A stretch of DNA of 19,187 nucleotides, taken from the NCBI GenBank assembly GCA_040289515.1, contig PSLI01000037.1, forward strand, positions 1 to 19,187, in the 5' to 3' direction. Below, in pieces: positions 8,613 through 19,187 of the stretch; position 1 is the first letter of the stretch, and each line of letters opens with the position of its first letter. This DNA comes from Candidatus Sysuimicrobiota bacterium (GTDB lineage: Bacteria > Sysuimicrobiota > Sysuimicrobiia > Sysuimicrobiales > Sysuimicrobiaceae). A program made the position numbers and the translations under genes. The notes beneath the pieces were generated by a model. That model was given only the letters and a program-made list of their open reading frames with translations, ran no database searches and had not been told where the DNA came from.

Positions 8613-9479
8613 GTGCGGCTGGTACGCTTCGAGGACGGCGGGTCGGTCCGGTGGGGTGTTGTGAAGGGGGCGATGGTGGTCCCGGTACGGACCTTCCGCT
8701 ACGAGGGACCTCTGGAGTGGGAGCCACGCCAGTTACCGCTGCCCTCCGTGCGGCTGCGTGCGCCCGTGGACCCGCCCCGCAACGTCTTCTGCATGGGCCT
8801 GAACTATCTGGCCCACGTGGAGGAGTCGCCAACCCGGCAGATCCCCAAGGACCCCGTGTGGTTCACGAAGGCCACCACCAGCGTGGTGGGGCCCGAGGAG
8901 GAAGTGGTGGTAGACCCCGCCCTGACCACCCAGTTGGACTGGGAGGTGGAGCTGGCGGTGGTGCTGCGTCGGGGCGGCCGCCGCATCCGCGCCTCTCAGG
9001 CTCTGGAGTGGGTGTTCGGCTACACCGTGCTGAACGACCTGTCCGCGCGGGACCTGCAGTTCGCCCGCGGGGGGCAGTGGTTCTACGGGAAGAGCCTGGA
9101 CGGCCTGTGTCCCGTGGGGCCCGTCCTGGTGACGGCGGACGAAATCCCCGATCCCCAGGCACTGGAGCTGTGGCTACGGGTGAACGGGCAGGTGCGGCAG
9201 CATGGCTACACCCAGGACATGATCTTCTCGGTGGCGCAGGCCATTGAAGACCTGTCCCGCGGCATCACCCTGCTGCCCGGAGACGTGATCGCCACGGGAA
9301 CTCCCGCGGGCATGGGATTCGGACAGAACCCTCCCGTGTTCCTGCAGGACGGGGATGTGGTGGAGGCGGAGATTTCGGGGATCGGGGTGCTGCGCAACCG
9401 TATCCGCTTCGAAAGCACCGGGGCCCGTTGCGGGGGCCGCACGGGCTCCGTAGGATTAGGGGGTGGAACGCGCCCGTAG
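8613..9479 (+). CDS. Fumarylacetoacetate hydrolase (FAH) family protein
   Basis: 'FCMGLNYLAHVEE', 'PVWFTK', 'LDWEVELAVV', 'GYTVLNDLSARDLQ', 'GKSLDGLCPVGP', 'LLPGDVIATGTPAGMG', 'IGVLRN'. AAGGAGG at 8601-8607 supports GTG at 8613. The stop codon lies inside the tRNA. Confidence 0.93.
   Translation: MRLVRFEDGGSVRWGVVKGAMVVPVRTFRYEGPLEWEPRQLPLPSVRLRAPVDPPRNVFCMGLNYLAHVEESPTRQIPKDPVWFTKATTSVVGPEEEVVVDPALTTQLDWEVELAVVLRRGGRRIRASQALEWVFGYTVLNDLSARDLQFARGGQWFYGKSLDGLCPVGPVLVTADEIPDPQALELWLRVNGQVRQHGYTQDMIFSVAQAIEDLSRGITLLPGDVIATGTPAGMGFGQNPPVFLQDGDVVEAEISGIGVLRNRIRFESTGARCGGRTGSVGLGGGTRP
9428..9456 (+). promoter_or_regulatory. sigma70-type promoter for tRNA-Arg
   Basis: -35 TTGCGG (9428-9433), 17-nt spacer, -10 TAGGAT (9451-9456), 13 nt upstream of the mature tRNA 5' end. 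Confidence 0.65.
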
Positions 9480-9545
9480 CTCAGAGGACAGAGCGTTGGC
9501 CTCCGGAGCCAAAGGCCGCAGGTTCGAATCCTGCCGGGCGCGCCA
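9470..9545 (+). tRNA. tRNA-Arg (anticodon CCG)
   Basis: Acceptor stem GCGCCCG/CGGGCGC, D-stem GCTC/GAGC with GGA (A20), anticodon stem TTGGC/GCCAA around loop CT-CCG-GA (CCG at 9503-9505), T-arm GCAGG-TTCGAAT-CCTGC, discriminator G and encoded CCA; 76 nt. Confidence 0.98.
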
Positions 9546-9783: not shown

Positions 9784-10986
9784 CTACCGGGCCGGGACCT
9801 CGGCCCGGGGGACCTCCCGCGCGCCCGGCCGGAGCTGGCTGCGGGCCTGAAGGCCCGCAGCGGCCATGAACAGCGCGGCCAGCAAGAACACGGGCCGTGG
9901 CCCTAGGGCGCTGGCCACCGCGCCTGCCACGAAGGGTGCCGTGAGGCCGCGCAGACCCAGGAGCACGGTGTAGGCGGCTGCGTACGCGGCCACCCGGCCC
10001 GGCGGGGCCAGCTCCATGCAGGCAGCCATCCACGCCAGGTCCAGGCCCGCCACGAAGAACCCGTCGGAGGCGAAGGGCAGCAGTGCGGAATACGGGTGGA
10101 AGGCTACAAAAAAGCAGGTGGGTGTGAGCGCGGCACCTGCCAGCAGGGTGCGCATGGCTCCCACGCCGGAGTGCCGGTCCACGTAACGCCCCCAGACGAA
10201 GAACCCCACCGTGGAGGTCACCGCGCCGGTGGCGGACAGGACGCCCACCTGGGCCGGGGTCGCGTGCAGCTCGTCCACCAGCAGCAGAGGAACCGCGGGG
10301 GCCATCATCCAGCCTCCGAACCCAAACACGAAGGTCACCCGCAGCAAGGTACGGAAGGCCGGATCCTGGAACGCATCCCACCACGGCGTCGGTGCTGCCA
10401 GCGCGTGTGTGGGCCGGTGGGGTAGGCGGATCCCACGGAAGGCCAGGGCGCCTGCGATCCCGAAGACGGAGGCCGCCGCAAAGACGGCCCCGTGACCGAA
10501 ACGCTCCACCGCAGCGCCCGCCACCAGGGAGGAGGCCACTGCGGCCGCGCTGAACCCCACGCGCACGACGCCCACCAGCCTGCCCCGCAGCTCGGGAGGC
10601 AGCACCCTGCCCACCGTCTCCGCGTACGCGGGCACGGTGAGCCCGTTGAGGAGGTGGTAGACCACCACCAGGGCTATCAGGCCTTCGGGGCCCGCGACCC
10701 ACGGTGTGAGCAGGAACAGCCCCCTGCCCAGCAGGGCGGGCCACACCACCAAGGCCACCGGGTTGCGGGCGGCCAGGGCAGGAGCCCATGCGGAGGTAAG
10801 GAAGAAGCCCAGTGCGGGGGCGCTGGCCAGCACGGAGATCCACAGGGGCGGTGCGCCCAGCCGTCGGGCCACCACGCCTGCGAAGGGGATCACCACCCCG
10901 GAGAACACGCCCGTCAGCAGGGCGCTGGCAAGGTCACGGAGGAAGGCGTGCCGGGCCCGCGGCGGAAGCGACGACAGGGGGCGCAC
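9784..10986 (-). CDS. Major facilitator superfamily transporter
   Basis: 400 aa with about 12 hydrophobic segments, 'LPPELRGRLVG', and motif-A-like 'WGRYVDRHSG' in the second half. Substrate unknown. Confidence 0.88.
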   Translation of the reverse strand: MRPLSSLPPRARHAFLRDLASALLTGVFSGVVIPFAGVVARRLGAPPLWISVLASAPALGFFLTSAWAPALAARNPVALVVWPALLGRGLFLLTPWVAGPEGLIALVVVYHLLNGLTVPAYAETVGRVLPPELRGRLVGVVRVGFSAAAVASSLVAGAAVERFGHGAVFAAASVFGIAGALAFRGIRLPHRPTHALAAPTPWWDAFQDPAFRTLLRVTFVFGFGGWMMAPAVPLLLVDELHATPAQVGVLSATGAVTSTVGFFVWGRYVDRHSGVGAMRTLLAGAALTPTCFFVAFHPYSALLPFASDGFFVAGLDLAWMAACMELAPPGRVAAYAAAYTVLLGLRGLTAPFVAGAVASALGPRPVFLLAALFMAAAGLQARSQLRPGAREVPRAEVPAR

Positions 10987-10993
10987 GGCTCCA

Positions 10994-11023
10994 GTTGTAG
11001 GGCCTGTTTTGCCGCGGTGTCAA
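10994..11023 (-). promoter_or_regulatory. Putative promoter of the MFS gene (possibly leaderless)
   Basis: On the minus strand: perfect TTGACA (11023-11018), 18-nt spacer, TACAAC (10999-10994; imperfect -10), then 7 nt to the GTG at 10986. Confidence 0.5.
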
Positions 11024-11049
11024 ACCCCACCATGGCGCCGCCGCTCGCG

Positions 11050-11055
11050 TAGAAT
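11050..11055 (+). promoter_or_regulatory. Putative -10 element (TAGAAT) for the nucleoside hydrolase-like operon
   Basis: TAGAAT 21 nt upstream of ATG 11077, with SD GGAGG at 11067-11071. No good -35 is visible. Confidence 0.5.
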
Positions 11056-11076
11056 AACGGGGAAGCGGAGGTGCGC

Positions 11077-12096
11077 ATGCGCAGGTTGTTGGTGGACGGC
11101 GACGGCACCACGGAGGATGTGGTGGCCCTGTGGATGGCCGCGAAGCAGCCGGACGTGGAGGTGGTGGCGGTGACCACCGTGGCCGGCTGCGTGCGGGTAT
11201 CCCAGGCCACAGACAACGTCCTGTACGGAATGGAACTGGCAGGGCTGAGCCGCATCCCCGTGTACGCAGGCTGCGAGCGTCCCCTCGTGCGGCCTCACAG
11301 CCCCTTCGACGCGTTCTTCGGCCGGGGCGGCCTGGGAGCCCACAGCGCGGGCAGGCCCAAGGGTCAGCCGGAGAGCGCCCACGCGGTGGACGCCATCCTG
11401 TCTTTGTGCCGGCACTACCGGAGGGAGCTGGAGCTGGTATGCCTAGGGCCCCTCACCAACCTGGCCGCGGCCCTCATCCAGGCCCCGCGTCTGGCGGAGC
11501 TACCCGCGCAGGTGTACGTGTACGGAGGGGCCGGCCAGGGCGGCAACGTGACCGCCTGCGCGGAGTACAACTTCTACGCGGATCCTGAGGCGGCAGCCCT
11601 GGTGCTCGACAGCGGGCTTCCCATCGCCCTGTTCGGATGGGACCTGGCCCGCCAGCACCTGTGGATGCGGGACGCGGATCTGCTCCGCATCCGACAGGGC
11701 CCGACCCGGGAGTGCCGCTTCTTCCTGGAGGGGACCCGGACCCTGGCCGACTACGCCCGAAGGGTCCTGCGGCAGAAGGGTTCGGATCTGGGCGCGGTCC
11801 TGACCATGGCCGCGGCCCTGGACCCCGCGGTGGTGCGGGAGGCGGTGCGGATCCGTGCGGACGTAGAGACGCGGGGGGAGCTGACCCGCGGCCAGCTGGT
11901 GCTGGACCCTCTGGGTATATCCCGCAGGCCGCCCAACGTACGGTGGGTCCGGGACGCGGACGGCGAGCGGGCGCGCGAGCTGCTGTTCGCGGCTTTGGGA
12001 GCGCCTTCCGTGTCGGAGCCGCTCCCGCAGGGACCGGAGAAGGCTCCGGGCGTGGAGCCGGAAGCTCAGGAAGCGCCAGCACCGCAGGGCCCGTAA
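11077..12096 (+). CDS. Inosine-uridine preferring nucleoside hydrolase homolog with a degenerate active site
   Basis: Fold motifs 'LLVDGDGTTEDVVAL', 'IPVYAGCERPL', 'LGPLTNLA', 'GNVTACAEYNFYADPEAA' and 'VETRGELTRGQ'. Several canonical catalytic residues are substituted. Pro/Glu-rich C-terminal tail. Confidence 0.88.
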   Translation: MRRLLVDGDGTTEDVVALWMAAKQPDVEVVAVTTVAGCVRVSQATDNVLYGMELAGLSRIPVYAGCERPLVRPHSPFDAFFGRGGLGAHSAGRPKGQPESAHAVDAILSLCRHYRRELELVCLGPLTNLAAALIQAPRLAELPAQVYVYGGAGQGGNVTACAEYNFYADPEAAALVLDSGLPIALFGWDLARQHLWMRDADLLRIRQGPTRECRFFLEGTRTLADYARRVLRQKGSDLGAVLTMAAALDPAVVREAVRIRADVETRGELTRGQLVLDPLGISRRPPNVRWVRDADGERARELLFAALGAPSVSEPLPQGPEKAPGVEPEAQEAPAPQGP

Positions 12097-12132
12097 GGAC
12101 GGGGAGGCTACGGGCAGGGACGGAGCGACGCC

Positions 12133-12795
12133 GTGTGGGTGGCTGCGGGGACCTCGTTCGCGTTGGGCGTCTTCATCACTGCTGCGGCCAGCCGGAGACG
12201 CTGGCAGGACGCCCGGGTGTGGTCCGCGTTTGCCGCGGGGGGCTTGGTGTTCCTCGGGGTGCAGTTCGGTGCACGTCCCGTGGGCGCGCTGGCGGGGCAG
12301 CTGTCCGGCGGGGGTGACCTGCCCGCATGGGCCGTGGTGGCGGTCGTGGCGGTGTTCGCGGAGGTGTTCAAGCTCACGGCAGCCCTGGTGCTGCACCAGG
12401 TTTACCGGCTGCCGCCTGCGGACGGTGCCCGCCTGGGGGCGGCGGTGGGGGCTGGTTTTGGGGCTTGGTCGGAGGCTGTGGTGCTGCGGGCCGCACAGCA
12501 GGTGGCACAGCTGGGTCTGCCGGGCGGCGTCTCGTGGGCGAGCGTGGTGGTGGCTTCCGCAGCCCGGCTGCTGGCGGGCGCGGGCAGCACGGGGATCGCA
12601 TCCCGGCTGGCCGCCCACGGCAGGCCGTGGGCAGGCCTGGCCGCGGCATGCGGGGCGCAGCTTTTGCTGGACCCAGTCCTGCGGATGGCAGTAAGGCAGC
12701 CCGGATGGGTCCTGCTGTGCACCGCCTTGTTGGGAGGGGGCTTGTTCGCCGCCCTGTGGGTGCCGGAGCGCGGGGGACGGATGAGATGCCGGTGA
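12133..12795 (+). CDS. Integral membrane protein, distant PrsW/YhfC glutamic intramembrane protease-like
   Basis: About 7 hydrophobic helices. 'VFAEVFKL' resembles the EExxK motif and 'GAAVGAGFGAWSE' resembles the second G-rich F..E motif of this clan. The family assignment is tentative. Confidence 0.6.
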   Translation: MWVAAGTSFALGVFITAAASRRRWQDARVWSAFAAGGLVFLGVQFGARPVGALAGQLSGGGDLPAWAVVAVVAVFAEVFKLTAALVLHQVYRLPPADGARLGAAVGAGFGAWSEAVVLRAAQQVAQLGLPGGVSWASVVVASAARLLAGAGSTGIASRLAAHGRPWAGLAAACGAQLLLDPVLRMAVRQPGWVLLCTALLGGGLFAALWVPERGGRMRCR

Positions 12796-13100
12796 ACCCG
12801 AAGCTGCGGGATCCTCACGTGGACCGGCTGTTCGAGGCCATCCTGCAGCTACGGTCGGTGGAGGAGTGCTACCGGTTCTTCGAGGATCTGTGCACCGTCC
12901 ACGAACTGCGGGCCCTGGCCCAGCGGTTCCACGTGGCGCGGCTGCTGCACGAGGGCGCCACCTACGACGAGGTGGTCCGGCGGACGGGGGCTAGCTCCGC
13001 CACGGTGAGCCGGGTGAAGCGGTTCCTAGAGTACGGGGCCGACGGCTACCGCTTGGTGCTGCGCCGCCTCGCGCGCCGCGGACCCCAGAGCCGGGGTTGA
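12786..13100 (+). CDS. yerC: YerC/YecD family TrpR-related repressor (HisR-type)
   Basis: C-terminal 104 aa of the listed 12327..13100 ORF: MPVNPKLRDPHVDRLFEAILQLRSVEECYRFFEDLCTVHELRALAQRFHVARLLHEGATYDEVVRRTGASSATVSRVKRFLEYGADGYRLVL. This is the classic YerC signature, and the gene lies directly before the his operon. Confidence 0.93.
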   Translation: MPVNPKLRDPHVDRLFEAILQLRSVEECYRFFEDLCTVHELRALAQRFHVARLLHEGATYDEVVRRTGASSATVSRVKRFLEYGADGYRLVLRRLARRGPQSRG

Positions 13101-13125
13101 CCCACGGGGCCGGAGGTGGTAGGGT
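13097..13125 (+). promoter_or_regulatory. his operon promoter (sigma70-type)
   Basis: -35 TTGACC (13097-13102, overlapping the yerC stop), 17-nt spacer, extended -10 TG-G-TAGGGT (13117-13125), then 7 nt to the in-frame GTG at 13133. Confidence 0.7.
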
Positions 13126-13132
13126 GGGGAGC

Positions 13133-14341
13133 GTGCTGCATTCACTTCTTTATCGAGGTAAAGAGCTAAAGTCTCGGCTGCCCGCGGGGCTGCGGGACTG
13201 GACGCCGGAAGAGCTGGCACCTTTGCGGGCCCTGGAGGCGCGGCTGCGGAGGACCTTCGAGGCCTGGGGCTACCGCGAGGTGGCCACCCCGGTGCTGGAG
13301 TACCTGGACACGTGGACCCACGCGGCAGGCAGCGGCCCCGCGTCCCTGTTCGTGGTGGTGGACCGCAGCGGGGAGTTGCTGGCTTTGCGGCCGGAGCTTA
13401 CCGCGTCCGTGGCGCGCCTGGTAGCCACCCGCGGGCCGGAGGGAGTGGCGAGGCTGTACTACGTGGGCTCCGTGTTCCGGGCGGACGCGGGGCGGGGCGG
13501 TAGCCGGGAGTTCCCGCAGGCGGGGGTGGAACGGGTGGGCGAAGGAGGCGCGGACGCGGACGCGGAGGTGGTGGCGCTGGCGGTGGAGGCGTTGCGAGAG
13601 GCGGGGGTAGCGGGGGCGCGGCTGGGTGTGGGCCACGCGGGCTTCCTGCGAGCGCTGTTGGAGGCTGCGGGGCTTCAGGAGCGATCCGTGCCGCAGCAGG
13701 CCTTGCTCCGCAGGGACTTCGTCACCCTCTCGGCCCTGCTGGAGGGGGCACCGGAGCCCGTGCGGCAGGCGCTGCTGGACCTGCCGTCCCTGCGGGGTCG
13801 AGGGGCCTTGAGCTCTGCCCGCAGGCTGGGCGTGGGCGGACAGGCCCTGGAGGAGTTGGAGGCGGTGCTGGAGGCGTTGGGGGCCTATGGGGTGGCGGAG
13901 CACGTGGAGGTGGACCTGGGGATCATCCGTGACTTCGACTACTACACCGGCGTGGTGCTGGAGGCGTACGCGCCCGCCAGCGGGGCACCCCTGCTGGGCG
14001 GGGGCCGGTACGACGGGCTGCTGGAACACTTCGGTGCAAGCAGGCCAGCGGTGGGGTTCGCCGTACACCTGGAGCGGGTGCTGTCCAGCTGCCGGCTGGA
14101 CGTGCCGCCACCTCCGGTGCTGGAGGTAGCCTACGACCCCAGCACGCGGCCGCAGGCCGTGGCGTGGGCGTCCAAGGCGCGGGCCGCGGGGCTGCGGGTG
14201 GCCACGGGGCCCGCGCAGAATGGCCCGCCGCGAGCCGGCGTGAATTTCCGGGCGGACGGGGTGTGGTGGGTGGATGCGAGGGGTTCGCGGCGGCTGGCAG
14301 CCTCGGAGCTGGATGCGCTGCTGGAGGGTCGCACGCCGTGA
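13133..14341 (+). CDS. hisZ: ATP phosphoribosyltransferase regulatory subunit HisZ
   Basis: HisRS-like motifs 'LPAGLRD', 'WGYREVATPVLEY', 'LALRPELTASVAR', 'RLYYVGSVFR', 'REFPQAGVE', 'DYYTGVVLE', 'GGGRYDGL', 'PAVGFA'. It precedes a short-form hisG. The listed ORF starts at TTG 13097, which coincides with the -35 box, so GTG 13133 is preferred. Confidence 0.93.
   Translation: MLHSLLYRGKELKSRLPAGLRDWTPEELAPLRALEARLRRTFEAWGYREVATPVLEYLDTWTHAAGSGPASLFVVVDRSGELLALRPELTASVARLVATRGPEGVARLYYVGSVFRADAGRGGSREFPQAGVERVGEGGADADAEVVALAVEALREAGVAGARLGVGHAGFLRALLEAAGLQERSVPQQALLRRDFVTLSALLEGAPEPVRQALLDLPSLRGRGALSSARRLGVGGQALEELEAVLEALGAYGVAEHVEVDLGIIRDFDYYTGVVLEAYAPASGAPLLGGGRYDGLLEHFGASRPAVGFAVHLERVLSSCRLDVPPPPVLEVAYDPSTRPQAVAWASKARAAGLRVATGPAQNGPPRAGVNFRADGVWWVDARGSRRLAASELDALLEGRTP
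13147..13172. promoter_or_regulatory. Palindromic operator, putative YerC/HisR binding site, inside hisZ
   Basis: TCTTTA-TCGAGG-TAAAGA (13147-13164) plus a further TAAAG half-site 8 nt downstream (13167-13171). It forms an AT-rich island in about 70% GC DNA. Confidence 0.75.
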
Positions 14342-14967
14342 ATCGCCTCACCCTGGCCCTACCCTCCGGGCGGTTGCTGGGCGACTGCGTGCGCGTGCTG
14401 CACGCGGCAGGTTACCGGGGAGCCCGGGAGGACCGGAGCCTGGTCTGGGGCTGGGCGGACCTCACGGTGATCGTGGCGAAGCCCGCGGACCTGCTCACCT
14501 ACGTGGAGCGGGGGGCTGCGGACTGCGGGGTGGTGGGCAAGGACGTGCTGTTGGAGCAGTCCCACGAGGTGTACGAGCTGGTAGACTTGGGCTTCGGCCG
14601 TTGTCGGGGTGTGGTGGCCTTACCGGCGGAGTGTCGCCGTCTGTGGGAGGATCCCCGCCGGCACCTGCGGGTGGCCACCAAGTACCCGCGGGTGGCAGAG
14701 CGGTTCTTCTGGGAGCGTGGTCGGCCCGTGGAGATCGTGGAACTGTACGGGTCCGTGGAACTGGCCCCGCAGGTGGGGCTTTCCGACGGCATCCTGGATC
14801 TGGTGATGACCGGTGCCACGCTGCGGGCCAACGGCCTTGTGGAGGTGGCGGAGGTGTTCCGGTCCACCGCGCGCTTGGTGGTGAACCCGGTGAGCCTGCG
14901 GACCCGCAGCGCCGCCGTGCGGGAGCTGGTGGGGCGGCTGGCGCGCGCCGCCCAGGAGGTGTCGTGA
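14338..14967 (+). CDS. hisG: ATP phosphoribosyltransferase, short form
   Basis: GTGA overlap with hisZ. 'LTLALPSGRL', 'YVERGAADCGVVGKDVLLE', 'DLGFGRC', 'RVATKYP', 'LYGSVELAPQVGLSDGILDLVMTGATLRANGL'; 209 aa with no C-terminal regulatory domain. Confidence 0.96.
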   Translation: MNRLTLALPSGRLLGDCVRVLHAAGYRGAREDRSLVWGWADLTVIVAKPADLLTYVERGAADCGVVGKDVLLEQSHEVYELVDLGFGRCRGVVALPAECRRLWEDPRRHLRVATKYPRVAERFFWERGRPVEIVELYGSVELAPQVGLSDGILDLVMTGATLRANGLVEVAEVFRSTARLVVNPVSLRTRSAAVRELVGRLARAAQEVS

Positions 14968-16292
14968 GCAAGGAGGTTCGTCTTCTGCACTTGCGGCAGA
15001 CGCCCTCGACGGAGTTGCGCCGCATCCTCGCCCGGTCCCAGGCGCGTGCCCTGGATGCCCGGACCCAGGAGGCGGTGAGGGCTTTGCTGGAGGATGTGGC
15101 GCGGCGGGGGGACGCTGCGGTGGTGGACGCCACCCGTCGGTTCGACGGCGTACAGCTGGAACCGGACCGGCTGCGGGTGAGCCGGGAGGAGTTCGCTTCC
15201 GCCCGGGATCGGGTGGCGGAGGGGCTACAGGCGGCTTTGGCAGCCGCCGTGGATCGCACCCGGCGGTTCTCGGAGTGGCTGCGGCCCCCCGCCCGGATGG
15301 CGGAGGAGCTGGAGCCGGGCATCACGGTGGGCGTGCAGTTCACGCCCTTGGCTTCCGTGGGGGCGTACGTCCCCTCGGGCAAGGGCAAGTTCCCCTCCAC
15401 CCTGGTGACCCTTCTGACCCCTGCGGTGGTGGCGGGCGTGCCGGAGATCGCGGTGGTGGTGCCGCCCCAGCCGGACGGGAGCGCGGATCCCGCGGTGCTG
15501 GTGGCCGCGGAGCTCGTTGGGGTGGACTGCGTGTACCGGTGCAACGGGCCCGCGGGGATTGCGGCGCTTGCCGTGGGCACGCAGTCGTTCCCCCGCGTGG
15601 AGGCGGTGGTGGGTCCCGGCAACCCGTACGTGGTAGCCATGCAGCTTCTGGTGCAGACCCGCGGGGTACGGGTGCTGGGTACGTTCGGGCCCACGGAGTC
15701 CGTGGTGCTGGCGGACGGGGAGGCGGACCCGGACCTGGTGGCGCTGGACCTTCTGAACGAAGCCGAACACGGGAGCGACTCCGCCGCGTGGCTGGTGACC
15801 CCTTCCCCTGAATTGGCCCGCACGGTGCGCGACCGCGTGCGGGGCTTGCTGGAGCGCCTACCGGAGCCTCGGCGGGGCTACGCCCAGGACGCCCTTACGG
15901 ACCTAGGCGGCATCCTCGTGGTGGAGGACTGGGAGGAGGCGGTGGCCTTCGTGAACCTGTACGCTCCCGAGCACGTGATGGTGCACGCAAAGGACCCGTG
16001 GTCGGTGGCCGCCCGCATCCGGCACGCGGGCGAAGTCCTGCTGGGGCCCCACACGCCCTTTTCTGCGGCCAACTACGCCATCGGGGTGCCCGCGGCCCTG
16101 CCCACCGGAGGCGGAGCCCGCCGGGAGTCGGGGGTAACGGTGCTGAGCTATCTCAAGGCCACCTCGGTGGCGGCTTTAAACCCCGAGGGGTTGGACAAAG
16201 TCCGGCCCGTGGTGGAGCACCTGGGGACGTACGAGGGGTTTCCCGCGCACGTGATGGCGGTGCGGGACCGCCCCCGGGGAGGCATCCGGTGA
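14964..16292 (+). CDS. hisD: Histidinol dehydrogenase family protein (divergent)
   Basis: GTGA overlap with hisG. 'RRGDAAV...TRRFD', 'VGAYVP', 'VVGPGNPYV', 'GPTE', 'AEHG', 'NLYAPEH', 'LPTGG.AR..SG', 'EGFPAH', at the expected position in the his operon. Confidence 0.9.
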   Translation: MSKEVRLLHLRQTPSTELRRILARSQARALDARTQEAVRALLEDVARRGDAAVVDATRRFDGVQLEPDRLRVSREEFASARDRVAEGLQAALAAAVDRTRRFSEWLRPPARMAEELEPGITVGVQFTPLASVGAYVPSGKGKFPSTLVTLLTPAVVAGVPEIAVVVPPQPDGSADPAVLVAAELVGVDCVYRCNGPAGIAALAVGTQSFPRVEAVVGPGNPYVVAMQLLVQTRGVRVLGTFGPTESVVLADGEADPDLVALDLLNEAEHGSDSAAWLVTPSPELARTVRDRVRGLLERLPEPRRGYAQDALTDLGGILVVEDWEEAVAFVNLYAPEHVMVHAKDPWSVAARIRHAGEVLLGPHTPFSAANYAIGVPAALPTGGGARRESGVTVLSYLKATSVAALNPEGLDKVRPVVEHLGTYEGFPAHVMAVRDRPRGGIR

Positions 16293-17344
16293 CGCCCCGT
16301 GCGCGGCCGGAGGTGGAGGCCCTCTCCGGCTACCACTTGAGAGCCGCGGACGTCCCCGTGAAGCTGAACCAGAACGAGTGCCCGTACGACGTCTCCTGGC
16401 AGCTGAAGCAGGAGATCCTCGAACGGCTCCGGGCCCTTCCGTGGAACCGGTACCCGCCCATGAGGGCGGAAGCTGCCCGGGCGGCGGTGGCCGAGGCGTG
16501 CGGGGTTCCACCGGAGCGCGTGCTGGTTACCAACGGGTCCAACGAAGCCATCCTGGCGCTGCTGCAGACCTTCGCGTGCGGGCGGACCGTGGCGCTGCCT
16601 GAGCCTGGCTATTCCATGGCTCGCCCCCTGGCGGTGGTGGCGGGAGCGCGCGTATGTCCCGTGCGGCTGCGGGAGGATCTCAGCGTCGACACACACGCCC
16701 TGGCCCGGGCGGCGCAGGAAGGGGCTGCGCTGGTGTTCCTAGCCTCGCCCAACAACCCCACGGGGCGGGCGGTACCTCCCGAGGAGGTGCGGGCCCTGCT
16801 GGAGGCCTACCAGGGGCCGGTGGTGGTGGACGAGGCCTACTGGGGGTTCTGCCCGTGGTCGGTCCTGCCCCTGCAGGAGCGGTATGCGCACCTGGTGGTC
16901 CTGCGCACCGCCTCCAAGGCCCTCGGCCTAGCGGGCGCCCGGGTGGGCTGGGTCGTGGCGCATCCGGAGGTAATCCGCCAGGTGGCCAAGGTGATCCCGC
17001 CTTACAACGTGAACCTGTTCGGACAGGTGGCGGTGGAGGTCATGGCCCGGCACGGGGGCCTGGTGGCGCGGCGCATCCAGGAGGTGGTGGCGGAGAGGGA
17101 CCGGCTGTACGGAGCCATGCGTGCCCTGGGGGTGCAGGTGTATGTCAGTGACGCCAACTTCCTGCTGTTCCGCGTGCCGGATGCGCAGGCCACGTTCCTG
17201 CGCCTGCTGGAGGCAGGCGTGCTGGTGCGGGACGTGTCCCGTTCCCCCATGCTGGAGGGCTGCCTGAGGGTCACGGTGGGCTGCCGGGAGGAGAATGACA
17301 GGTTTTTGCAGGCCCTGCAGGCCGCGCAGGAGGTGAGGGTGTGA
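16289..17344 (+). CDS. hisC: Histidinol-phosphate aminotransferase
   Basis: GTGA overlap. 'VKLNQNECPY', 'NRYP', 'TNGSNEAI', 'SPNNPTG', 'VVDEAY', PLP lysine in 'LRTASKALGLAGARVG', 'SDANFLL', 'LRVTVG..EEN'. Confidence 0.96.
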   Translation: MTPRARPEVEALSGYHLRAADVPVKLNQNECPYDVSWQLKQEILERLRALPWNRYPPMRAEAARAAVAEACGVPPERVLVTNGSNEAILALLQTFACGRTVALPEPGYSMARPLAVVAGARVCPVRLREDLSVDTHALARAAQEGAALVFLASPNNPTGRAVPPEEVRALLEAYQGPVVVDEAYWGFCPWSVLPLQERYAHLVVLRTASKALGLAGARVGWVVAHPEVIRQVAKVIPPYNVNLFGQVAVEVMARHGGLVARRIQEVVAERDRLYGAMRALGVQVYVSDANFLLFRVPDAQATFLRLLEAGVLVRDVSRSPMLEGCLRVTVGCREENDRFLQALQAAQEVRV

Positions 17345-17919
17345 GGCAGGCGCAGGTGGAGCGCCGGAGCGCGGAAACGGAGGTCCGGGTGCGCCTGCTG
17401 CTGGACGGGACCGGGGCGCACCGGGTGAACACGGGTGTGCCCTTCCTGGACCACATGCTGGCGCAGTGGGCGCACCACGGAGGGTTCGACCTCGAGTTGG
17501 ACGCCTCCGGCGACCTGGCCGTGGATCCCCACCACACGGTGGAGGACGTGGGGCTGGTGCTGGGCGACGCTTTCTGCCGGGCGCTGGGGGACGCGCGGGG
17601 GATTGCGCGGTTCGCCAGCCTGCATGCGGTGATGGACGACACCCTGGTCCTGTGCGCGGTGGACGTGAGCGGGCGCCCGTACCTGCACTGGCAGGTGAGC
17701 TGGCCTGCGCCCCTCATCGGCACCTTCCCCGCGGAGCTGGTGGAGGAGTTCTTCCGCGCCTTCGTCACCCGTTCGCAAATTGGCCTGCACGTGATCGCCG
17801 TGCACAGCCGCAACAGCCACCACCTGGCGGAGGCGGCCTTCAAGGGCCTGGGGCTCGTGCTGGGGCAGGCGGTGCGGCTGGAACGGGCGGGGCACCCGTC
17901 CACCAAAGGCGTGCTGTAG
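17341..17919 (+). CDS. hisB: Imidazoleglycerol-phosphate dehydratase
   Basis: 'TGVPFLDHML', 'GDLAVDPHHTVEDVG', 'DVSGRPY', 'NSHHLAEAAFK', 'PSTKGVL'. Confidence 0.98.
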   Translation: MRQAQVERRSAETEVRVRLLLDGTGAHRVNTGVPFLDHMLAQWAHHGGFDLELDASGDLAVDPHHTVEDVGLVLGDAFCRALGDARGIARFASLHAVMDDTLVLCAVDVSGRPYLHWQVSWPAPLIGTFPAELVEEFFRAFVTRSQIGLHVIAVHSRNSHHLAEAAFKGLGLVLGQAVRLERAGHPSTKGVL

Positions 17920-17922
17920 GGG

Positions 17923-18549
17923 GTGTGCGTGCGGGCGGTCCTGGTGGACTACGGCGCAGGCAACCTCCGCAGCGTGGAGCGGGCCCTGGCGCGGGTGGGG
18001 TTCGCGGTGGTGCGGGCCCACCGGCCGGCCGACCTCAGCGGGGCAGATCTGGTGGTGTTGCCCGGTGTGGGGGCGTTCGGGCCGGCGGTGCGGCGGCTGT
18101 CCGAGGTGGGCTTCGCGGATGCGCTGCGGGACTGGGTGCGCGGAGGCAGGCCCCTGCTGGGGCTGTGCCTGGGGATGCAGCTGCTGTTCGAGTGGAGCGA
18201 GGAGGGGGGGCTGCACCGAGGTCTGGGGTTGCTGCCAGGACGGGTGGTGCGCCTTCCGCCTTTCGGGAAGGTGCCCCACATGGGGTGGAACCAGCTGGAG
18301 CCAACCAGACGTTCCCCTCTCCTCGCGCGGGTGCGCCCCGGGGAGTACGTGTACTTCGTGCACTCGTACTACGTCGTCACCCCTGCCGACCGCGTGGTGG
18401 CCTGCACATGGTACGGTGTCTGTATCCCCGCGGTCGTGGAGGAGGGATGCGTGGCGGGCTTCCAGTTCCACCCGGAGAAGAGCGGGGAGGTTGGACGCCG
18501 GCTGTTGGCGGGGGTGTTAGAGTGGGCGGGTGCCCGGGAGCGCGCGTGA
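17923..18549 (+). CDS. hisH: Imidazole glycerol phosphate synthase, glutaminase subunit
   Basis: 'DYGAGNLRSV', 'LPGVGAF', 'LGLCLGMQLL', 'KVPHMGWN', 'YFVHSY', 'QFHPEKSG'. The start may instead be GTG 17929. Confidence 0.97.
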   Translation: MCVRAVLVDYGAGNLRSVERALARVGFAVVRAHRPADLSGADLVVLPGVGAFGPAVRRLSEVGFADALRDWVRGGRPLLGLCLGMQLLFEWSEEGGLHRGLGLLPGRVVRLPPFGKVPHMGWNQLEPTRRSPLLARVRPGEYVYFVHSYYVVTPADRVVACTWYGVCIPAVVEEGCVAGFQFHPEKSGEVGRRLLAGVLEWAGARERA

Positions 18550-19187
18550 CGGTGTTCCCCGCCTTGGATCTGCTGGGCGGGCGCGTGGTGCGCCTGGCGC
18601 AGGGGGACTTCCGCCGGGTCACCGAGTACGCCGCCGACCCCGTGGAGGTGGCGCGGCGGTGGGCGCAGGCGGGTGCCAGGTGGGTGCACGTGGTGGATCT
18701 GGATGGTGCGCGGGACGGCTCACCCGCCCACCTGAACCTGCTTCCTGCCCTCAGCCAGCTGGGTGTGCGGGTGCAGTTCGGAGGCGGGCTGCGAACGGAA
18801 GAGGCCGTGCAGCACGCCCTGGAGGCGGGCGCGCACCGGGTGGTGGTGGGCACCCGGGCCGTGTTGGAGCCAGCGTGGCTGCGGCGCCTGTGCGCCCGGT
18901 GGGGCGACCGGGTGGTGGTGGCTTTGGACGCGCGGGACGGGCGAGTGGCGGTCCAGGGCTGGGCGCAGACATCACCCGTGGCAGTGGAGCAGGCGGCGCG
19001 GCAAGTGCTGGCGTGCGGGGCTGCCCACCTGCTGGTCACCGACGTGGCCACGGACGGGGTGCTGGCGGGCCCCAACTTCGCCCTGTACCGGGCTTTGGTG
19101 TCGCTACCCGCTTCCGTGGTGGCCTCCGGAGGGGTGCGCCATACGGGGGACGTGCGGGCGCTGCGGCGGGTGGGGGTGCGGGGGCTG
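18546..19187 (+). CDS. hisA: ProFAR isomerase HisA (3'-truncated by window edge)
   Basis: Not in the ORF track because it has no stop. GTG at 18546 overlaps the hisH stop and reads MTVFPALDLLGGRVVRLAQGD...DPVEVARRW...HVVDLDGA...VQFGGGLR...VVVGT...TDVATDGVLAGPN...VASGGV. Confidence 0.95.
   Translation, partial: MTVFPALDLLGGRVVRLAQGDFRRVTEYAADPVEVARRWAQAGARWVHVVDLDGARDGSPAHLNLLPALSQLGVRVQFGGGLRTEEAVQHALEAGAHRVVVGTRAVLEPAWLRRLCARWGDRVVVALDARDGRVAVQGWAQTSPVAVEQAARQVLACGAAHLLVTDVATDGVLAGPNFALYRALVSLPASVVASGGVRHTGDVRALRRVGVRGL

Follow-up and report, generated by a model that had tools for sequence, protein, structure and literature searches.

A predicted HisR operator that probably doubles as the first codons of a leaderless hisZ in an uncultured bacterial order

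The his operon in a 19,187-nt stretch of DNA from a Candidatus Sysuimicrobiota bacterium (the window, which is one entire contig, C76, of a 1.99-Mb genome of 70% GC) begins with hisZ and lies directly downstream of hisR (yerC), the gene of a TrpR-family repressor. We investigated a HisR-type operator, predicted from its match to a published motif, that lies 5-42 bases past the predicted promoter of this operon. Comparison with relatives makes it probable that the his mRNA is leaderless from GTG 13133, that the operator is at the same time hisZ codons 2-14, and that HisR represses the operon from this position.

Operator, regulator and promoter

The predicted operator array occupies 13137..13174 on the plus strand, over codons 2-14, and comprises four half-sites at an 8-bp period; it spans +5 to +42 if 13133 is +1. 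At its centre is the palindrome TCTTTA-N6-TAAAGA (13147-13164), with a further TAAAG at 13167-13171. Both the palindrome and the extra half-site at 8 bp had been described in an earlier note on this DNA and were located; we found another half-site upstream as well, TTCA (13141-13144), which lies 8 bp 5' of the palindrome and mirrors the extra TAAAG. TrpR binds tandem operators at an 8-bp period; a literature search on tandem TrpR binding found no primary paper. The peptide SLLYRGKELK, counted in the note as codons 5-14, is in fact codons 4-13. The abrupt AT-rich stretch that it pointed to is, of all 30-mers in the window, the one with the least GC (13140-13169, 33% GC vs 71%), the second-lowest standing at 47%.

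TCTTTA-N6-TAAAGA occurs a single time in the whole genome. Scored with an operator matrix built from 36 relatives' sites, the window array is the genome's best match at 46.5 bits, and the next unrelated non-N site reaches 11.0; this test is partly circular, since the training sites were chosen by the same core. A second CTTTA-N6-TAAAG (C50:15138) lies within a called gene, on the minus strand, and is absent from the top matrix matches; we rejected it as a regulon member. A search of metagenome contigs for the exact operator pattern gave no matches, and querying genome contigs with the HisZ N-terminus yielded no confirmed locus.

The hisR gene (12786..13100, plus strand) encodes a protein of 104 amino acids (aa) that matches TIGR02531 (133 bits; cut-off 42.2), PF01371 and the PDB entries 3G1C (E 4.5e-28) and 3FRW (E 5.9e-30). 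3G1C is treated as a HisR structure in the study of the HisR (YerC) regulon by Ashniev et al. 2022 (PMC9413887), and the helix-turn-helix residues named there (Tyr, Ala, Thr, Ser and Arg) are present in the YerC alignment. The HisR operator consensus given in that study is cacTTTAnnnnnnTAAAgtg, 20 bp with the core TTTA-N6-TAAA, and its "8 bp" is the spacer separating the half-sites; R. gnavus HisR showed histidine-dependent operator binding in vitro (PMC9413887). The 20-bp core operator of the window (13146..13165, unstranded) matches this consensus at 8/8 core bases. Together with the TIGR02531 and 3G1C matches, this bears out the earlier proposal that YerC is a HisR-family protein with a CTTTA-N6-TAAAG-type site, and supports the prediction that the palindrome is a HisR-type operator.

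The predicted promoter consists of a -35 box (TTGACC, 13097-13102) and an extended -10 box (TG-n-TAGGGT, 13117..13125), both on the plus strand and separated by a spacer of 17 nt. Seven nucleotides after the -10 box stands an in-frame GTG (13133..13135, plus strand; C at -1, G at +1), likely both the transcription start and the hisZ start codon. All of these elements are where the earlier note had placed them. It had also seen that the yerC stop overlaps the -35 box: TGA (13098-13100) sits within TTGACC, and the hisR stop lies inside the -35 box in 12/12 loci examined. In the -10 region, TGGTA and the final T are invariant among 12 aligned loci. A generic promoter scan of 11000-14500 returned no sites because TAGGGT scores under its match threshold.

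hisZ (13133..14341, plus strand) encodes the ATP phosphoribosyltransferase regulatory subunit, 402 aa counted from GTG 13133, with a TIGR00443 score of 293 bits (cut-off 271.65). On this numbering, position 1 of the PF13393 model falls at HisZ residue 19. The in-frame ATG, GTG or TTG codons 5' of the conserved domain are those at 13097, 13124 and 13133, and all three precede the operator; beyond them, no canonical codon is in frame until TTG 13223, a start that would lose Pfam positions 1-12. The earlier placement of the operator inside the hisZ frame therefore stands, its translation being the predicted part.

We propose that the predicted sigma-70 promoter would start transcription at or beside 13133 and that GTG 13133 would start HisZ, the operator being read as codons 2-14. 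Histidine-loaded YerC/HisR dimers would occupy +5 to +42 and block initiation or early escape. The footprint of RNA polymerase extends downstream to about +20. Since the operator overlaps this expected footprint, an initiation block is as likely as an elongation roadblock. Since operator and promoter are as far apart as in relatives whose operator is untranslated, repression would work in the same way; any transcription reading through from the upstream unit would in addition be partly obstructed by bound HisR.

Leader loss and start-codon history in the order

How did an operator come to lie in a coding sequence? We searched 94 genomes of the order for the pattern TTGAC-N17-19-TANNNT-N10-30-TTTA-N6-TAAA, using the same pattern reversed as a control. 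A promoter with a downstream operator was found in 60/94 genomes and the reversed control in 0/94; the pattern occurs once per positive genome, except for one genome with two. For those matches with fetched loci, the position before hisZ was checked. Promoter and operator are both present in 38/42 loci (30 genome loci and 12 metagenome loci, the latter chosen for holding a site), separated by 15-29 nt. Judging from these comparisons, the promoter-operator layout is ancestral in the order.

This layout argues against the suggestion in the earlier note that the operator is coded within the gene for want of a 5' untranslated region (UTR). Order-wide, the operator stands 15-29 nt past the -10 box in an untranslated leader, so the UTR was lost later and the operator did not move. 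The sequence record thus indicates that the operator is older than the loss of the UTR and is not a compensation for it. In the 30 loci outside the deletion clade described below, some of them near duplicates, an in-frame ATG, GTG or TTG follows the palindrome in 30/30, and the operator-to-core distances fall into frames 0, 1 and 2 in 6, 11 and 13 cases.

G003, G006 and L045 have an operator-to-core distance of 74 nt, with a Shine-Dalgarno sequence (SD) and a GTG. In the alignment, this SD-start segment is missing from eight loci, the window's among them; on this alignment, a 14-20 nt deletion in the genus took out the old SD and start codon. The eight loci form a clade in the his-operon protein tree (1938 columns; support 1.0/100), which splits into G007 plus L044 and a six-member group with the window (FastTree 0.999, UFboot 100; FastTree was run on 19 rows, IQ-TREE on 13 of those rows, and L044 was placed by YerC alone). 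Each operator-to-core distance in the clade is divisible by three (33, 42, 42, 54, 54, 54 and 60 nt); there are seven only, L044 being truncated. The two TAA-containing operator arms close two of the three frames (12/12 loci), and hisZ occupies the sole stop-free frame in 7/7 complete clade loci, across four spacer lengths.

The two branches of the clade differ in their start codons. In G007 and L044 the +1 position lacks a GTG; one stands in the right operator arm (TAAAGTG), 3 nt after GAGGT, and the left arm of L044 contains a TAG in frame. This sister branch likely starts hisZ at the GTG within the operator. In the six-member group, GAG or GAA replaces the right-arm GTG, and an open in-frame GTG follows the -10 box at 6-7 nt and precedes the operator core by exactly 15 nt (6/6). 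The five bases following this +1 GTG are free to vary among the six loci, which share no other canonical start. A V or M in the +1 register is also found, with other linkers, in P0009, P0011 and P0013, in a search biased by its use of the peptide itself. An in-frame TAG/TAA variant of the left arm was seen in 0/6 clade loci vs 30/55 other genomes, in a tally made by eye in which kin are not independent.

A tentative history, which we would put slightly short of an even chance, is that the gene swallowed its own operator. After the leader deletion, the start would have moved first to the GTG of the TAAAGTG arm, with GAGGT as its SD, as still in G007 and L044. It would next have moved to the +1 GTG, and the inner GTG would then have decayed to GAG or GAA. 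HisZ would thereby have gained a 13-residue N-terminus out of regulatory DNA, and the array would block the promoter and also act as a roadblock to read-through.

Outside the clade, the GAGGT in the operator spacer of L014, L016, L019 and L023 lies 5-9 nt 5' of the hisZ start codon; it may double as the hisZ SD, an independent approach to the state of G007. In L014, L016, L019, L022, L023 and L052, a GTG in an upstream operator half-site, close behind the -10 box, opens a 10-codon mini open reading frame (mini-ORF) that ends at the operator TAA, with two adjacent His codons in L016 and L019. Most likely the operator sequence creates this mini-ORF incidentally, but a leaderless leader peptide ahead of hisZ is conceivable.

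The check proposed in the earlier note, whether the palindrome is conserved in relatives beyond amino-acid needs, was run and found conservation at the DNA level. Codons 2-13 include seven amino-acid-invariant codons, four of which have an invariant A/T third base (TCA, CTT, GGT and AAA), and each of these four makes up 2-10% of its amino acid's codons. Invariant A/T third positions in the HisZ core number 0/239 amino-acid-invariant codons, and the deep branches differ at 35-47% of four-fold sites. By this comparison, the operator DNA is under a constraint of its own.

It is very improbable that the AT-rich palindrome acts in RNA, as a hairpin, attenuator or sensor of His codons, instead of as a DNA operator. 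The window has a His codon at position 3 and a weak hairpin is possible, but folding z-scores are -1.10, 0.05 and -1.29, the only Rfam match in the window is a tRNA, and a His codon is found in 1/6 clade loci. Moreover, the palindrome fits a DNA motif that has been validated, and it disappears along with hisR. We rejected a T-box or His attenuator, given no Rfam match besides that tRNA, no tandem-His leader peptide with a terminator, and z-scores near zero to -1.29.

Leaderless initiation in the genus and alternative starts

Is leaderless initiation to be expected in this genus? Using a home-made gene caller (1915 genes), we counted TANNNT boxes 6-7 nt before an SD-less ATG or GTG. Among the 325 genes without an SD-led candidate there were 20 vs 7.7 expected (Poisson P 1.5e-4), GTG being the codon in 15 of the 20, and among the remaining genes 47 vs 21.2. 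Control patterns gave 6/6.0, 5/6.8 and 11/5.5 observed/expected, so that TA...C is mildly raised. The unstratified genome-wide histogram is weak and frame-biased, and sharper once stratified by SD. Leaderless geometry is kept in 8/8 genus genomes both at purE (TACAAT/TAGAAT, 7 nt) and at ksgA (TACGCT/TACCCT, 6 nt, always GTG); outside the genus it is found at purE in 0/4 and at ksgA in 3/4. These patterns support the existence of leaderless GTG starts in the genus. In mycobacteria, a 5' ATG or GTG is enough for leaderless translation, which is poor in E. coli, according to the cited part of PMC4633059.

In genome G000, four genes begin without an SD, 6-7 nt past a -10 box: argC-like (C73 near 4065), purE (C36 near 6115), ksgA (C62 near 18909) and rfbD-like (C24 near 42339), with positions given strand-wise. 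The names argC and rfbD are our presumption from the N-terminal sequences. The AT-rich promoter of the argC-like gene possibly includes an ARG box. In the window, an MFS transporter gene shows, at 10986-11023 on the minus strand, TTGACA-18-TACAAC followed after 7 nt by its GTG; this gene, which points away from the promoter of the upstream hydrolase gene, may be leaderless too.

Several observations count against a leaderless start at GTG 13133, some of them general and some in favour of particular alternatives. The leaderless candidates in the genome are a small minority, with an excess of roughly 12 + 26 among 1874 genes. An ATG or GTG stands 4-9 nt past the -10 box in 11/30 loci outside the clade, none in the hisZ frame, and G003 has a GTG at the same register as the +1 GTG that is closed by TAG; a GTG at this place can thus exist without starting hisZ, and the +1 GTG may be older than its use as a start. 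The GC content of third codon positions in codons 2-14 is 3/13, below all 1525 called N-termini, and codon usage alone would class these codons as non-coding.

Furthermore, the view in the earlier note that there is no usable SD did not hold. By pairing with the 16S tail of the genome, which is standard, both GTG 13133 and GTG 13124 are SD-preceded. GTG 13133 follows the SD-like GGGTGG (aligned spacing 7, -6.6 kcal/mol), a strength reached by 37% of called starts vs 12% of internal control codons. The in-frame GTG 13124 follows GGAGGTGGT (spacing 6, -13.7 kcal/mol); this rival start, with its GGAGGTG, spans 13112..13126 on the plus strand. Both SDs lie 5' of the predicted +1, so they would serve read-through RNA only, and that of GTG 13133 overlaps the -10 box in the window.

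These SDs favour an alternative that we consider unlikely: most HisZ would be made from mRNA reading through from the hydrolase-membrane protein-hisR unit, with an SD guiding initiation at GTG 13124 or 13133, or with translational coupling at TTG 13097 by way of a TTGA overlap. HisR would then act mainly as an elongation roadblock, with the operator still in coding sequence. In line with it, nothing resembling a terminator was detected between 11397 and 14500, a TAGAAT box stands 5' of the hydrolase across the family, and public gene calls (P0001-P0003) place the start of this protein at 13097 or 13124. In genus g2 (L132-L134; 94-99% complete), 3/3 genomes lack hisR as well as the his promoter and the operator, a joint absence that ties the operator to the presence of hisR; hisZ there comes directly after the upstream membrane-protein gene, and the hydrolase-membrane protein unit continues into the his operon. 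With the local promoter lost and the operon retained, expression of hisZ in g2 seems to come from upstream only.

However, the local promoter is invariant in genus and order, and the starts that read-through would use are not. GTG 13124 is in frame in 3/6 clade loci (SD -13.7, -6.0 and -2.8 kcal/mol) and TTG 13097 in 2/6, on which count we rejected TTG 13097 as a general start. The SD of the +1 GTG, -6.6 kcal/mol in three of the six loci including the window, is absent in the other three (-1.7, -1.7 and -0.9 kcal/mol in G001, G002 and G004), and in G001 and G002 the -10 box also contains a TAA in frame. The SD likeness may itself be a by-product of the -10 box, as TAGGGT-type boxes are also seen in relatives with ordinary leaders. 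Read-through and a local promoter may coexist.

A further alternative, which we regard as improbable, is a 33-nt leader with a non-canonical start inside the operator (CTA 13166; ATA in relatives) and the spacer GAGGT as SD, leaving the operator mostly untranslated. This GAGGT lies 6 nt 5' of CTA 13166 (13155..13168, plus strand; -5.4 kcal/mol). ATA stands 6 nt after GAGGT in 6/8 deletion-clade loci, and the near-identical P0002 has I for the window's L, so probably ATA. The HisZ N-terminus would have ordinary length, and the non-coding look of codons 2-14 would fit. Set against this, the codon is CTA in the window and GTA in L043, with V in P0009, P0011 and P0013, and the +1 GTG and stop-free frame in 6/6 loci would be left unexplained. 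Initiation in E. coli, as given in the cited part of 10.1101/063800, is 1-2% of AUG for AUA and 0.1-1% for most other codons, which also argues against such a start.

Neighbouring genes and comparison with known systems

Downstream of hisZ, all on the plus strand, lie the short form of hisG (14338..14967; TIGR00070), hisD (14964..16292; PF00815), hisC (16289..17344; TIGR01141), hisB (17341..17919; NF002114 above cut-off), hisH (17923..18549; TIGR01855) and a PF00977 protein (18546..19187; Pfam), likely hisA by position, which is cut by the contig end. The conserved HisD motif is SQAEH; the motif region of this HisD reads NEAEHG. The upstream co-directional unit, also on the plus strand, has a -10-like box TAGAAT (11050-11055), of which the whole or the tail is found 5' of the hydrolase in family loci. 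It comprises a nucleoside hydrolase (11077-12096; PF01156) and an unclassified hydrophobic protein of 220 aa (12133-12795) with no Pfam or NCBIfam match. The gene of this protein is kept directly 5' of hisR or hisZ in the family. A tRNA-Arg(CCG) gene lies at 9470-9545.

The his system of the window has much in common with the HisR regulon of PMC9413887: a TrpR-family repressor, a 20-bp TTTA-N6-TAAA operator and a his operon that begins with hisZ. In having hisR directly 5' of the his operon, it resembles the Peptococcaceae and Negativicutes of that study, although the present lineage is not among the phyla named in the cited sections. The listed sites consulted in PMC9413887 are nearly all 5' of the start codon, whereas that of the window covers codons 2-14 of hisZ, a likely leaderless gene, and is an array with four half-sites. 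At least three rows of Additional file 4 stand at positive positions (+54, +129 and +3), uncommented, and one site at -17 would touch the start codon. Searches of the open literature turned up no leaderless gene described as carrying a HisR operator in its coding region, though the rest of Additional file 4 and the other additional files of that study may list more coding-region sites.

Repressor sites inside genes are known from other systems. The PurR site inside E. coli purB is said to be of the elongation-roadblock type. The C.Kpn2I box in kpn2I.C (PMC6237814) is likewise a repressor site within an ORF, where C.Kpn2I acts as an elongation roadblock; the window site, by contrast, starts about 5 nt after the predicted +1, in its ancestral promoter-proximal place. 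Unlike sites of the C.Kpn2I and PurR-purB type, as far as the cited sources describe them, the window operator would have turned coding by loss of the leader. Most intragenic binding sites are inert and unconserved according to the cited part of PMC9934606; the window site is conserved. Mesorhizobium nreA (PMC12724321) has a repressed leaderless promoter like that of the window, but with the operator in or overlapping the core promoter, and the Zur targets of C. glutamicum (PMC2823685), also repressed and leaderless, have it there as well and not in coding sequence. DtxR sites downstream of transcription starts are noted in PMC5784534. Each ingredient is thus already in the literature, namely HisR itself, intragenic operators and leaderless promoters under repression; the layout and its history are the new part.

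Altogether, our work traces the predicted HisR regulon through an uncultured order, in which GTG starts of leaderless type prove to be conserved. Public gene calls for HisZ disagree, giving 390, 412 and 424 aa in one cluster and 405 and 414 aa in that of the window, and motif searches confined to upstream regions would miss operators of this kind. The loci form a small, well-sampled natural series, from leadered through a start inside the operator to likely leaderless, in which the ancestral state survives in sister species. Such a series offers a case of how bacterial genes may turn leaderless and regulatory DNA may turn coding.

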